A stretch of DNA of 64,000 nt from Eledone cirrhosa (Eukaryota): assembly GCA_964016885.1 (NCBI GenBank), contig OZ024741.1, positions 205,344,001-205,408,000 on the forward strand, written 5' to 3'. Below, one piece after another: positions 34,346 through 57,926 of the stretch. The notes under the pieces were generated by a model that saw nothing but the letters and a program-made list of their open reading frames with translations, did not search any database and had not been told where the DNA came from. The position numbers were made by a program, and so were the translations under genes. Within the stretch, counting starts at the first letter, position 1; each line of letters opens with the position of its first letter.

Positions 34346-35332
34346 TCTATTCTTGAGTGTTAGGTATAGAGTCTTCCTTTCCTCGTTGTCTATCTACAAA
34401 GCTTCCCAACCCTCTCCAACACCATATATTAGGCAACATTGGCCCTTCAGCCTTGAGGAAGTACGTGAAGGGGCATGACATCTTCCTTGCTGCTCTCAAC
34501 TCTCAGAAGCCTTGTGTGCCTGACCGTATATAGAGATTTCTGTGACTGTGTGTTCTAGGTTTAAGAAATGATATGTGTGAATCCGCAAACGCACGCACAC
34601 ATAATTCTATGCGGATTCACACATCATTTCTTAAACCTAGAACACACAGTCACAGAAATCTCTATATATTCTACCCAATGACACCTCCTCACCCCAATAT
34701 ACACCACAGAGAAGCATGACAAACTTCTTGAATTTTAAATTTGGCGCCAGCAGTTGAATACCAAAGCTGACCCAGAAAGGTCGGCCTATCTACCAAGAAA
34801 GTCCCCAGAAAGATCGGCCTATCTACCAAAAGAAATATCACAGATTGATAATTTTATACAAGAACCTTACATTAAATTTTTAGCTGTCGTAAATCAAAGC
34901 GGCTGATCTTTAACTTAGTAATTTGACACCTTAGTCTAGCGACTTAACACAACCAGTTAATACCACAGAGAAGTATCTTCCATCTCTTGCCCCTGCTTGC
35001 CTACAGACACCGTTTTGTACATCATATGCTCACATGGGGTATGAGGTTCGGTTCTGTCGGATATTTCGAGTTTTTTAACTATGCTAAGACCTTCTTTATG
35101 CTAGTGAGTGTAGATTCATTTGTTTTTTTTTTGTATTTTTTGTGTAGTTCATGTCGAATGAAATTATTGTATGTATTAAGGTCCATAGTATATACGTTGT
35201 ATGTATTAAGGTCTATAGTATATACATTGAATGTGAAAGCTGCACAGAGTATATATATATATATATATGAAAAATATGGGGAGAAGAATACTGCCTGGTT
35301 GCACATGGATTACATGTTATAAAATGAGTCCC

Positions 35333-35424
35333 TCATCAGTGATTTGCCAACGATCATTGGTATTTCATCGCATTAAAAATCATATACCTCACGTTGGTGC
35401 GATAATAACTAAAATAAGTTATTA
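35333..35424 (-). ncRNA. Structured RNA motif (kink-turn plus pseudoknot) ending in CTGATGA, copy 1
   Basis: Homologous to 57709-57812 with compensatory changes in three helices (see findings). Confidence 0.55.
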
Positions 35425-36531
35425 GGACAATTGAAACGCGTAAAGCGAGTGAGACGAGTAAACAACACAGGGGAAAGCTAACCAAAGATAGAAAGAAACA
35501 CAAACAACATGGTTATTCTGTCAGTATAAGCTGGATGAATACATGTGCGAGTGAGACACATACCTTCCGCTAGTGAATCCGATGTAAGAAAGAAGGAAAA
35601 TCGTTTTCGTAGCGAACGGGAGGAAGTAAGAAGGGGAGAAACAGAGAGTGAATGAGTGGAAGTGCGAGGAAGAGGTCAGTAGAGAGAAAGTGTTAACTGA
35701 CATGACAGAGGGGACGAAAGAAAGTAAGAGAAACAGAGAGAACGGGGGAGGAGAAAGAGAGAAACACAGAATCGCAGTTTAGGTAAATATATGTGAAAAA
35801 TATGGGGAGAAGAATACTGCATGGTTGCACATGGATTACATGTTATATGGCGATATCCAATTTTAGCGGCCTAAATGCCGCTTACTTGCTGTAGTAGCTG
35901 CTTACTTCAATGTATGAGGCTATTCCAACAAATTTACATTCCCCTTTTTTTAGCCGTTAAAAGGAATATAGATTTATTTATTGTTTTTTTTTTTGCGATT
36001 TATTTGCCACTGGGGCATAGATTTCTTTATTTGCCCCTTTTTTGTTTGTTTGTTTTTTGGCGATATATTAGCCTTTTGGGGTCACACACACCCCCGTAGA
36101 AAGTGTGCGACCTTTCTGCCAGGGAGAACAGAGGGAGGGGGTGCTCCCTTCTTCTCTTACCTGTACAAGCCGATATAGAGAGATGGCTCACTTACACGGG
36201 CCATTATTGCTACTTTCACCCATCTTTCATGGAATTGGCTGGGACTGAGTGCCTTTTTCTCCACAGAAGTTGGTATGTCACCCAAAGTTCGCTTTGTATG
36301 TTCCCGAATAGCAGTGAATTTTGATAAAACTGTTCTAATTCCTTCTCCAAATATCCATGTGTAGTTGAAGAGGATAAGTATGAAAGAACAGTCATTTAAA
36401 TTTACAGATGGACAGATGTGGTGTTTGGCAGGGTTTGAGATATATAGAAAAATAATTATTTACAGAAAAAGAAAATAATAATAAAGAATTATTATAATTT
36501 TTTTTAAGATTTATATCTTTTCGGACTACAC

Positions 36532-38636: not shown

Positions 38637-39660
38637 TTAAGCTGGTCTAAAGTTCTCAAATTTGGTGGCCGATTTATGCCGACAGAAAATAGTTCTTTCA
38701 ATTTTACTGTTAAGAAGCATTTTGTTGTAATTTAAAATTTGGAAAAGTTCCATATTACAGAGACCGCAGTGGGACATACCAACTTGATAGGCCGTTGCTT
38801 TTGATAGCTTCGTCCAGCTGATTTTATATTCCATGTTTGCATCCTTAAGTTGCCAGATTTTATTGGCGAGAGTCGTGTTTAAGAGGTTCCTGTTAATCAT
38901 AGAGTGTCTGTGGACGTACCACCTTTTCTTAAACTCCCCAACTGTGGAGCCAATGTAATGCCATGCTAAGCTACCTGAATTTATAGTACATAGGTATACT
39001 ATATTTGTCTCTAGGCATCTATTTTGTAAAGGGCATTTGTCAGGTAGATGGCAGTTACATTTAGATGCTTTTCTATGTGCCGGTTCTTCGATATGGGTTT
39101 GTAGGTTGCTATGTATGGGCTGAGTATTGGGTTTGTATTGTAAAGGTGATGTGTTCTGGCGTGTGTTTGGTTGTGATGATGTTATATGCTTATGATTTGT
39201 ATTTGGTGTTATGGTACTTATTTGCGAGCTACTTGTATTATAAATTTTTTTATAGTTAATTTTATGTATGTGCGATTCTATGTTGTTGGCAGTGGAGTAT
39301 GATAGTTTGATAGTTTTTCTATTAAAGATTTTATGATATTTATGAATTTTAGGGAAGTGTTTGTCAACCAATTTGAAGAAAGTGTAAGGTAGTTTTGTTT
39401 TTATAGAGGAGTTAAACATTGGATTGAACCATAAGTAGTTTCTATTTCTGCATCTTCTATAGTTATTAGTGGTCTTTATATTAGTATTCTGTTCATTTAA
39501 TTTGTGTGCCTGTTGCCAATTTCTATGTTTAGTCCTAGCTTTGTTGCTTCTATAGGTGTGGATAGTGTTATTTATATTAAGTGTGTTGTTATTTTTCGTA
39601 TCTGGTATGTATTTGAGTCTCTCTTTATGGTCTGCCTTAAGTAAAGCTATGTTGTATACC
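38637..39660 (-). mobile_element. Penelope-like retroelement ORF C-terminus (linker, Cys-rich motif, GIY-YIG endonuclease)
   Basis: WFNPMF..KHFP...KIFNRKTIKLSYS, CNC..KCPLQNRCL, IVY...HYIGST..FKKRW..H, CGLCNME and LLN..CRHK. Confidence 0.9.
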
Positions 39661-46455: not shown

Positions 46456-47622
46456 TCACCGGTCCGTCCGTCCAGCGTCCGACGACGCTGTCGGACGGCC
46501 TCGGTTTTCCTCTCCCCGTTCCGAGCTGCAAACCGACAGACGTGGGTGATCGGCAACTTGCTGCAGTCTTTCCGCAGTCCCCGGTTCCAAGGGAATGCCC
46601 TGCAACAGCTCCAGCTTCCGCAGTAGTGGCTCTAGAGTCAGTACGTACAGAATGGAGGAGAGAGGGCATCCCCGTCGGATGGAACGCGTGATTGCGAACG
46701 GCTCCGATAGGTAGCCATTCACCTTGACCATCGAGCAGATGTTGGTGTGCATTGTGGCGATCCAGCCTCTGAAGACGGGTCCGAAACAGGCCGCCTTGAG
46801 AACCGCTTCCAAGTATCGATGGTCGTCCCTATCGAACGCCTTAGACTGATCTAAATTGATCAGAGCCCCACCAAAGCCGCGTTTACACCCCACCCTCTCT
46901 ATGATGTATTGCATGAGGTGGAGGTTGTCGTGTATGGACCTGGTCCGGGTTGCACACGTTTGCGCTTTCCCTATCAGGTACTCAACGACAAGCGTCAACC
47001 TCGTTGCCAACACCTTGGCCAAAATCTTTAACTCTGTGTTGAGCAGAGTTATGGGCCTAAAGTTGCTTAGTTCATCCCCCTTGTTCTCGTCTTTCTTGAT
47101 CAGCGTTACTACGCCCCTGCCTGCAGAACTGGGAATTCTTCCGTTCTGCTGCCAGTTGCAGTAGACGGTCTCGAGGACGCCAGAGAACAAGTCCGGCATG
47201 CCTTTGTAAAACTCATAGGGTAGACGATCTAGACCGGGTGATTTGCGTTTCCCGCAGCGGCCCAGAGCGTCCCGTATCTCAGTGGCTGTGATCGGTCTTT
47301 CGCAGAACTCGGCGTCCATGCTCGAGAGACGCGGCAAGCCGTCGAGGTTTGAATCGAAGTCCATTACCCCGTTCGACGCAACGCCACTCTTCTCGAACAG
47401 TTGCGCAAAGTGCCGCTGAAAGGCCGCGCACATCCGCTTGGGGTCACTTAGCACGCGTCCGTTTTGGTCTTTCAAAGACCGAATCGTGGACTTGTTGCCA
47501 CTTTTCGCCTCTGCCACTCGGGCCCAGCTAACAGCTTTCGCTCCCTCGTTTCTTAGAGCATGTGATTTACTTCTGACCACGCAGCCTTCGTGTTTCGCGT
47601 CGAAGAACTGGTCCAGTGCCAC
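46456..47622 (-). pseudogene. Tx1 ORF2 reverse transcriptase (frameshifted, YADD region deleted)
   Basis: KSPGLD.LPYEFY, NFRPITLLNTELKILAK, LDQSKAFDR and IRRGCPLS. Confidence 0.9.
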
Positions 47623-47654
47623 TCCTAAGCGCCTCTTCTACCTTGGCTACTAGT

Positions 47655-48583
47655 TCAATTTCTGTTGTTTCTCTCTAAGGTTAACTCTCTGCTAAAGTCT
47701 ATCGACTCTACTCTAATTGCTTTCTTGAGGGAGTACCACCATCTGTTGTTGCCGATGGCTCCCGTCAATTGTTGCTTAACTAATCTACTTATCCGTTCAC
47801 TGTAGGCTTTACGTGTCGGTAGCGACACGTTCAGCTTCCAGTATCCGGGTCGTTGTCTATGTATTCTATCACGGTTGACTATGCAGATGACTAGTTTGTG
47901 ATCTGAATAGGCAACCATGTGCATTTGTGGACAGCTTAACGTCTTGTGCTTCTCTCTAATGAAAAACCTATCTAAATACGATCTAGATGTCCCGCTGCGG
48001 TTTGCCCACGTCCACTGTGGTACAGTCGGGAAATCTAGTCGATATCTATCGGCCAGTTGGAATTGGCCGATTAGATTTTTGAGGCTGTTGCACCCCCCTC
48101 TACTGGGACATGCTCCCACATAGTCCCATCGTGCATCTAGGATATCATTCCAGTCCCCCACTAAAAGTAAGGGGCGAGACGTTCCCAGAAAAGACTCTAG
48201 ACGCTTAAAGAAGTCTGGCCGCGATTGCGATTGCCCGGTCGGGGCATTCACGGCCACCAGTCTGAAGGCTCCACCTCCAATACTGGTCACGTCTAGGACT
48301 ACAAGTCTACCCTCCGGGTCCAAGTGTACTTGCTGTACTTCGATGTCCAGGTTTTTCCGAAACATGACAGCCACTCCCCCCCCCCACCTCCTGGCTGACA
48401 GAGAGATGCGTAGATCTCAAAGTCATTGAAGATGGGGGTTAGTTGCTGCCTGTTGTGGGTCCTGGACTCGGTGATAGCTATCACATCCATACCGTGTGAC
48501 CTAAGGTCGTTTAAAAGTTGGCCCTGTTTCCAGGGCATCCCTAGGCCACGCACATTCACGCTTCCAACTCGTAAACTAGCCAT
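47655..48583 (-). pseudogene. Tx1 ORF2 APE endonuclease (frameshift in a G run near 48375-48387)
   Basis: MASLRVGSVNVRGL, DVIAITES, LLVGDWN, SYLDRFF and SDHKLV. Confidence 0.9.
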
Positions 48584-56711: not shown

Positions 56712-57708
56712 GTGCGTGCGTGTGCGTGCGCACTTCTTTTTATTAACCTGCCACCTACCTAAAAATAGCACCGCATTCTCTGTAGTAAGTACCGCTGAAA
56801 ACATTTAAAAAACAATATTATAGAAATATGAACAAATAACAATAGAATTGAATCAAAGTCTATAAAATTGAAATAGACAGATAACTTAGATTTAAAAAAA
56901 TGGATTTTATTGTTTTTCACAAAATATTTATGATAATTTTTTTAAATTTCTCATCCAGCAGGAAATCGTTTCATATTTGATGTGTGTAATTTATATGAAA
57001 CATTTTTATATGGAATTTTAGCAGCAGTTTCTGGCATGATTTGACCACAATATCAATGATCTTACTATTACTATCTGATTTATCAGGTTTTAGTGGTAAG
57101 CCATGGTGGTAACTTTGAGTTCAACAACTAAATATATAAATAAATCAATAAGTTTATGAAGACGTTTTTACAAGTTTGAAAATTTGAAACTTATTTGCTT
57201 TTTTTTTTTTGCCTCCAACTTATTTGACTATTTTATAGTTAATATAAGAATTGTGGCTGCTTCTCACAATAAAAGCAAACATATCTGACAAGTTTGAAAA
57301 TTTAAATATGTTTTTGCCTGTTGAGTTCTCAATACATCTTTTGTTCAGCTTTTTATTATCAATTTTTGATTAATGATTCTTTGCACGTAGCAAATAGTTT
57401 TATAGATTCATAAATCTTTACTGAATTGTTTTCAAGATTTCTGAAGACAAAGTAGTATATATTAGTGGGTGGGTTTGATGAAATGATTTCAATGCAAGTT
57501 GAATTGATGGTAAAACGTTTATATATATATATAACAAAGAAGGTGTGGTAAGATACCAGGTGGACCATAACACACCAGAGTACTTGATACTTAGGGTAGT
57601 AGAGTGGGTCCTGACTCTTTTCATATATATATATATGGTGCCTCAGCATGGCCTCACCATTCGTGTTTGTTTACCTGTCTCTCTTTCTCCACCCAACTCT
57701 TTTTATCC

Positions 57709-57812
57709 CAATAACTTAATTTAGTTATTGTATCACCCTAGCTTGAGGAATATGGTCTGTAATGCGAAGAAATACCTATGATGGCTAGTAGACCACTGAT
57801 GACGGATATTCC
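57709..57812 (+). ncRNA. Structured RNA motif (kink-turn plus pseudoknot) ending in CTGATGA, copy 2
   Basis: Homologous to 35333-35424 (minus strand) with covariation. Confidence 0.55.
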
Positions 57813-57880
57813 TGGCTTCTATTTCTAATTCTTCATTTATTATATATATCATATTTGCAACAACACAGCTCGCTATTTTT

Positions 57881-57926
<46 letters not shown>

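Follow-up and report, generated by a model that had tools for sequence, protein, structure and literature searches.

Canonical hammerhead ribozymes of types I, II and III carry their core blocks in the circular order C-G-S, whereas a short segment of the Eledone cirrhosa genome presents them as S-G-C. We asked what RNA this segment could encode, how its strands would pair and what kind of element carries it. The window analysed is a stretch of 64,000 nucleotides (contig OZ024741.1, positions 205,344,001 to 205,408,000), in which the initial annotation had proposed a pseudoknotted hammerhead variant with a kink-turn at 57709..57812 (+) and in a homologue at 35424-35333 (-). All strands named there for the two segments, including the hairpin, helices A, B and C and CTGATGA, were found in place.

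Strand order and helices of the module

Read 5' to 3', the segment begins with an 8-bp hairpin (57709-57716/57723-57730) directly 5' of the predicted ribozyme fold; its pairs show no significant covariation, and by eye the hairpin is also present in HERO-like, L412 and octopus Naiad examples. There follow a strand that we assign to the 5' side of stem II (57733..57737, nucleotides 10.2-10.6), the 5' strand of helix A (57738-57743/57783-57788), a U-G-A that by its sequence would be the non-bulged strand of a kink-turn (57744..57746), and block S (57747..57758), made up of the 5' strand of stem III (57747-57751, with U16.1 at 57751), H17 (57752) and a strand of stem I (57753-57758). The next part (57759..57776) comprises a 4-nt linker, which is TTAA in 34 of the 48 copies aligned below, the 3' strand of stem II (57763-57768) and block G, with GAAA at 57769-57772 and the 3' strand of stem III at 57772-57776. 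After the putative kink-turn bulge with its G-A-U (57777-57782) and the 3' strand of helix A (57783-57788) comes block C (57790..57803), which holds the 3' strand of stem I (57790-57795), CUGAUGA (57796-57802) and nucleotide 10.1 (57803). A small GGA-n3-TCC hairpin after the core (57804..57812) is weakly kept across families, as judged by eye.

The module can thus be written as stem II 5' strand, helix A, UGA, stem III, H17, stem I, UUAA, stem II 3' strand, GAAA, stem III, bulge, GA, helix A, N, stem I, CUGANGA and N10.1. Helix B (57747-57751/57772-57776) corresponds to stem III and helix C (57753-57758/57790-57795) to stem I, which supports the proposed pseudoknotted hammerhead in a non-canonical, S-G-C order. 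The accompanying caveat that stem II cannot form is answered by a proposed fifth helix that had been overlooked, in which 57733-57737 pairs with 57763-57767. From hammerhead numbering, cleavage is predicted between 57752 and 57753 (+) and, in the second module, between 35383 and 35382 (-).

The second module (35332..35424, -) has every helix intact, with the 5' strand of stem II at 35403-35398, helix A at 35397-35392/35352-35347, stem III at 35388-35384/35363-35359, stem I at 35382-35377/35345-35340, GAAA at 35366-35363 and CUGAUGA at 35339-35333. The 57709 copy has two helix-breaking changes and is probably impaired. Its helix B mismatch, as annotated, is real and is a private T>A at 57749 in stem III (1 of 30 family copies); the other change, an A for G at 57735 that breaks one stem II pair, is shared by 5 of 30 family copies. 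At the 10.1-11.1 pair the 57709 family has C opposite A11.1, and 34 of the 48 aligned copies (71%) have a standard pair. Minimum-free-energy z-scores of five segments all lay between -1.7 and +0.2, so that thermodynamic folding does not single the module out, which is to be expected of a double pseudoknot with non-canonical pairs.

Genome-wide copies and covariation

A core pattern with fixed spacing matched the genome 15,997 times (7908+8089), compared with 0+0 matches for the reversed pattern. Pattern searches that left out both window families returned 347, 120 and 12 matches, with 0, 3 and 0 in their respective controls. Placed in fixed register were 180 distinct segments, of which 144 satisfied the requirements set for U16.1 and for stems I and III. 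For covariation we used an alignment of 48 rows, comprising 38 cluster representatives with intact upstream sequence and 10 small-indel rows; 10 of 48 cluster representatives were left out as 5'-truncated or deleted, as were 26 of the 36 filter failures, and 10 failures were restored. Invariance of GAAA, GA and CUGANGA in this alignment is forced by the search patterns, which also required H at position 17.

Over 23 pairs in the 48 copies, 87.0% of cells were paired, compared with 66.3% after shuffling (0/500) and 32-44% when the strands were slid, and two-sided change was seen in 21 of the 23. Stems I and III were paired in 89% and 92% of cells, values that include pre-filtering of 38 of the 48 rows on these same stems, and the UH core and stems are in register as for a hammerhead. 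The new stem II helix was 82% paired, with two-sided change at four of its five pairs. Fourteen hand-picked lineages, among them two metagenome loci and one HERO copy, were 92.9% paired overall and 88.6% in stem II. The helix formed with the upstream strand is thus 82-89% paired with two-sided changes, and none of its pairs is individually significant in a tree-aware test.

When 6216 column pairs were scanned de novo with the tree-aware method, seven of the best nine were proposed pairs. Against the tree-aware null only two pairs reached E<0.05, both in helix A with E=0.007; no pair of stem I (best E=0.13) or stem II (best E=29) did so. The covariation originally claimed from two sequences is significant in the larger alignment for two helix A pairs. 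A stem II made instead from the linker and the sequence after CUGANGA was absent from the top covarying pairs. N7 was U, A, G or C in 31, 8, 6 and 3 of the 48 copies, and H17 was A, C or U in 33, 12 and 3 and never G, as the pattern requires, a tolerance like that of hammerheads. The nucleotide following CUGANGA is frequently paired to the one that precedes GAAA.

Other identities were considered for the segment. An Rfam search with the 57709 segment gave no hammerhead match at E<=10 and three weak snoRNA/U6 matches (E 1-4), so that no Rfam family matches it. Neither a canonical hammerhead with a downstream GAAA nor the annotated alternative of a switch controlling stem I of a Penelope hammerhead agrees with the families examined, in which no GAAA and stem II follow CUGANGA. 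Box C/D snoRNA, SECIS, HDV-like and twister readings were rejected on inspection, since their strand order is wrong. We take the module to be a real, conserved RNA fold.

A candidate kink-turn between helix A and stem III

The predicted kink-turn lies between helix A and stem III, a position that is kept in HERO-like and metagenome examples. Its sequence has the 3-nt bulge and the tandem G.A/A.G that separate a canonical from a non-canonical stem in kink-turns. An NGA strand is present in 41 of the 48 rows opposite a bulge of three, with the GA of the bulged strand required by the pattern. The kink-turn of the initial annotation holds up in sequence and position; the U.U pair at 3b.3n, on which its box C/D-type label depends, is the commonest state, yet varies among families. 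Kink-turns with U.U at 3b.3n need protein to fold. The L079 family, with a few hundred copies, has U rather than G in the non-bulged strand.

The modules lie in young, non-coding retroelement families

A covariance model trained on relatives, both window families included, found only two strong matches in the window, at 113 and 101 bits, with the next best at 16. The 57709 and 35424 segments belong to two separate young repeat families, whose best 40 genome matches are 96-100% and 99-100% identical, respectively; a first look at the 3.0-Gb genome, which contains many (TA)n tracts, gave 2016 and 2410 candidates. The two modules share a fold, as had been annotated, but as members of two young families rather than as two old diverged copies. 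The repeat was present in three runs of unspecified kind from one sample.

The family 1 copy (57651..57886, +; BLAST extent against 29 relatives) is a 5'-truncated copy of a non-coding retroelement unit that ends at a microsatellite; the unit measures 558 nt in locus L004. The family 2 element (35258..35847, -) spans about 1.1 units, with a 64-nt terminal duplication and a period of 526 nt. Both copies had been described as truncated after CTGATGA-N-GGA. This was wrong, as in 30 of 30 relatives of each family shared sequence continues for ~45-100 nt past CTGATGA to (TA)n; no GAAA occurs after CTGATGA in this shared stretch in any of them.

Of 60 loci, 56 had (TA)4 within 140 nt, 10 had a second module on the same strand, in a head-to-tail partial tandem, and 12 had an inverted copy. 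Twenty-five distinct dimers had unit periods of 445-654 nt and were 59-71% pyrimidine on the module strand; their longest ATG frames (30-162 aa) were not common to the units, which we regard as non-coding. Non-coding head-to-tail units with one predicted ribozyme module each are a feature of non-LTR retrozymes. The elements resemble the non-LTR retrozymes and Penelope pLTR hammerheads of bioRxiv 10.64898/2026.07.22.740005 in their non-coding tandem units, single predicted ribozyme per unit and likely Penelope-like origin, and the architecture in the window is that described for Penelope-like elements and non-LTR retrozymes. Non-LTR retrozymes as reported there carry type I hammerheads, whereas the module is S-G-C; they were found with type I descriptors, which are unable to match an S-G-C fold.

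The same fold in HERO-like elements and metagenomes

With the same spacing pattern, a metagenome collection yielded 117 loci from 11 of its 64 parts, 115 of them distinct and scorable. Three of these had 20-22 of 22 pairs, the other 112 had at most 16, and the mean of all was 9.3. Helix sequences of the three well-paired loci are entirely different, including the upstream stem II strand, and their modules sit just 3' of the end of an RT-RLE ORF. This ORF has relatives among fish RT proteins of 1100 aa that carry a restriction-like nuclease at the C terminus; we take this clade of RT plus restriction-like nuclease elements to be HERO. In viral contigs, none of 22 scored matches exceeded 12 pairs (29 were found, of which 7 were duplicates or near an end).

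A search of the E. cirrhosa genome with the RLE peptide found 24 loci, 14 of which carry the fold about 100 nt past the stop codon with 17-20 of 20 pairs. Because the query was a protein, the pattern did not dictate the core sequences of these loci. HERO-like RT-RLE elements of this genome thus have the fold in their 3' UTR, built from other helix sequences; L443 holds a complete RT-nuclease element, interrupted by frameshifts, whose module occupies this position. All six HERO-like copies checked end 37-39 nt past the core. Rfam gave no relevant match for the metagenome loci or the HERO 3' UTR. In a second, older HERO-like family (L419, L421, L426, L429, L439) the fold appears decayed by eye, and its stem II strands are the inverse of those of the first family.

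Naiad elements and the likely mobiliser

We judged by eye 43 Naiad 3' ends in the consensus file of Craig et al., 2021 (PMC8557442), and 7 of them parse as S-G-C; the other 36 do not, within the visible stretch. In Naiad_Obim and Naiad_Ovul we see the full split fold, the kink-turn and the upstream hairpin, so that the octopus ends have the same hairpin, helices and kink-turn as the module. Naiad-2_Movir and the coral entry listed before Naiad-1_Movir have the split fold with a bulge in place of the kink-turn; the coral example has a long stem III, with which a fully paired monomer looks geometrically hard. Naiad_Esco is S-G-C with helix A and an upstream strand that is not clear, and the spider elements Naiad_Ptep and Naiad_Smim have an unsplit S-G-C fold with a downstream interaction helix. 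In the parts of that paper available, Naiads are described as lacking canonical hammerheads, and eight are marked 'HHR_half_core' without a fold (Craig et al., 2021, PMC8557442). As described there, Naiads also share with the window elements (TA)n targets, partial tandems and inverted 5'-truncated copies; unlike Naiads, the window elements encode no protein.

From this architecture and the by-eye likeness to the consensus ends, Penelope-like (Naiad) proteins are the likely mobiliser of the non-coding elements. A Naiad ORF was not found in this genome: a motif search gave 3 matches compared with 2 in the control, and the best 150 matches of a Naiad protein search were all C-terminal or short, none with the N-terminal nuclease (8 inspected). 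Penelope/Neptune ORFs near modules in L111 and L116 were rejected as the source, as they lie on the opposite strand and have hammerhead-like ends of their own. L148:6326 and L147:7740 hold a Neptune-like ORF of 768 aa and a Penelope-like ORF of 748 aa, both full-length and both followed downstream by short hammerhead-like cores of their own. Several bivalve and hemichordate Naiads and Naiad-1_Movir have, at their 3' ends, what we take to be twister-like motifs where others have hammerhead cores, and Naiads may swap ribozyme classes. Nematode Naiads have a C-before-G core with long stems in the part of the supplement seen (PMC8557442).

Relation to known hammerheads

In the available text and supplement of Eckert et al., 2023 (PMC10085705), six block orders are defined and type SGC is validated by cleavage and compensatory mutants; it is reported only from metatranscriptomes, with none in genomes of known organisms. 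It cleaves in vitro, also with its interaction helix directly on stem III, a junction noted there as a geometric puzzle. The module shares with this type the 5'-to-3' order S, G, C, the short linker between stems I and II and a fourth helix bridging them, here helix A with its two pairs at E=0.007. Helix lengths in SGC-3 (III 5, I 6, II 5, fourth 7) are near those of the module, and a UUA(A/U) linker appears in the variant alignment seen (PMC10085705).

The two differ in how block C is built. In type SGC, as described there, the 5' strand of stem II and the interaction strand follow CUGANGA and block C is taken as indivisible, whereas in the module both strands lie 5' of the whole core and block C is split, so that at most one stem II pair comes from after the core and the rest from upstream. 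Spider Naiads do keep an intact block C, as in type SGC, judging by eye from the consensus ends seen. The interaction helix of the module would moreover be closed onto stem III by a kink-turn, and the words 'kink' and 'k-turn' are absent from the text and supplement of PMC10085705 as available. Finally, type SGC comes from metatranscriptomes in the parts of that paper seen and the module lies in animal retrotransposon DNA. Read from strand order and pairing, helix A is in our assignment the equivalent of the I-II interaction helix, and the module a type-SGC ribozyme in which a kink-turn closes this helix onto stem III and the chain is opened anew immediately after A9/10.1.

The stem II proposed here, consisting of A9.G12 and one 10.1-11.1 pair and continued by a helix with a foreign strand, has a counterpart in the pseudoknot hammerhead, where the combination of a 1-bp 10.1-11.1 stem and a substitute helix is active and its structure has been solved (Zhan et al., 2024, PMC11300833). 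That ribozyme has Pistol-like connectivity, a helix IV stem-loop and an A-minor triplex, is not S-G-C, and in the parts seen has no kink-turn described. We found no paper on a split S-G-C fold in retrotransposons in a search whose coverage stopped short of most subscription journals.

Proposed mechanism and alternatives

The module is most likely an active split-SGC self-cleaving hammerhead with a kink-turn, carried by a tandem non-coding retroelement, a reading from sequence that we hold with reasonable confidence. Stem II would be assembled from the strand upstream of the whole core, the kink-turn would bend the RNA back on itself, and a standard hammerhead core would fold, with G12 as the base and the 2'-OH of G8 as the acid and cleavage after H17. 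Two tandem units would release a monomer of 450-650 nt able to circularise, and the circle or an uncut multimer would be copied into the genome, which would explain why genomic copies extend across the cut site and stop 45-100 nt beyond the core. Naiad and HERO-like elements, which are autonomous, would use the same module in the 3' UTR.

By analogy, the same pairing might give a strained, slow monomer that cleaves only when gated by a kink-turn protein (15.5K/Snu13) or as a domain-swapped tandem dimer, as minimal Penelope hammerheads do. Both strands tie helix A to stem III, more tightly than in SGC-3, and the commonest 3b.3n state is the protein-dependent U.U pair; the HERO-like ends 37-39 nt past the core (6/6) imply a template that keeps the part 3' of the cut, and the second same-strand module in 10 of 60 loci also fits. 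However, the fixed 16/7/14 spacing in the 15,997 matches and in unrelated elements suggests a rigid intramolecular fold, and SGC-3, with near-identical helix lengths, cleaves alone in the available text (PMC10085705), so we consider obligatory gating unlikely.

Copy ends bear on whether the module cleaves at all. In a pre-set test on 53 new modules, 0 of 5 non-TA 5' junctions fell at the cut site, and three TA-adjacent junctions that did so are explained by microhomology. Corrected by eye, 7 of ~19 junctions in the discovery set had been at the cut site, and in a further 100 rows, also by eye, 1 of 7 non-TA junctions was. At L221/L222 (G000:C1:29085123-29085216), which counts among the discovery-set cases, two copies form a perfect fold-back palindrome with its centre exactly at the predicted cut site; one arm of L205 likewise begins there. 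The lack of a robust pile-up of ends in the 53 new modules would suit a hammerhead relic that has lost catalysis and persists as a structured 3' element, either recognised by the retrotransposon RT or stabilising the RNA, as would the 3' UTR position in every host element and the amplification of family 1 with C.A at 10.1-11.1 and of family 6 with U for a kink-turn G. A relic would be expected to lose core nucleotides, whereas in the window copies, HERO loci and Naiad ends, which were not found by the core pattern, the core is kept across unrelated classes of element and N7 and H17 alone vary; we think this explanation quite improbable. Chance complementarity within one AT-rich repeat family of a single ancestor accords with the non-significant minimum-free-energy z-scores and with the relatedness of most own-genome rows, but not with complete helix replacement in the HERO-like, metagenome and Naiad examples, nor with the average of 9 of 22 pairs in chance matches to the pattern. 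The metagenome and HERO-like examples already largely refute it, and we give it almost no weight.

For the active split-SGC hammerhead, a broader interpretation is tentative, our confidence falling a little short of even. The module may represent a seventh topology among natural hammerheads, one not covered by the six-permutation scheme, with a kink-turn that possibly lets 15.5K switch cleavage on; it may be the standard, overlooked 3' ribozyme of two unrelated superfamilies, the Naiad Penelope-like and HERO-like RLE elements, from corals to fish, and connect the retroelements of animals with the SGC ribozymes known from viroid-like RNAs. If so, non-circularly permuted hammerheads would turn from a metatranscriptome rarity into a high-copy feature of animal genomes, and stem II could no longer be assumed to be inseparable from the CUGANGA block. 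A natural kink-turn would be one answer to the geometric puzzle of Eckert et al., the 'missing' and 'half-core' ribozymes of Naiads would be accounted for, HERO-like elements would gain a ribozyme, and the scrambled order would account for retrotransposon groups seemingly without one.

Other features of the window

Positions 1-7400 are a TA/TG microsatellite field of great length, which overwhelms scans for repeats and Rfam families, and the whole-window Rfam scan was swamped by microsatellite miRNA matches. A long inverted repeat at ~5090-5310 has CTGATGA on both arms and a weak MIR529 match below the gathering score; it is probably a MITE-like element. Three stretches on the minus strand (38637-39659, 20462-21094 and 46456-48416) are presumably fragments of a Penelope-type element, a restriction-like nuclease and a LINE, and 17702-19096 (+) resembles what we take to be a WAVE/SCAR exon.
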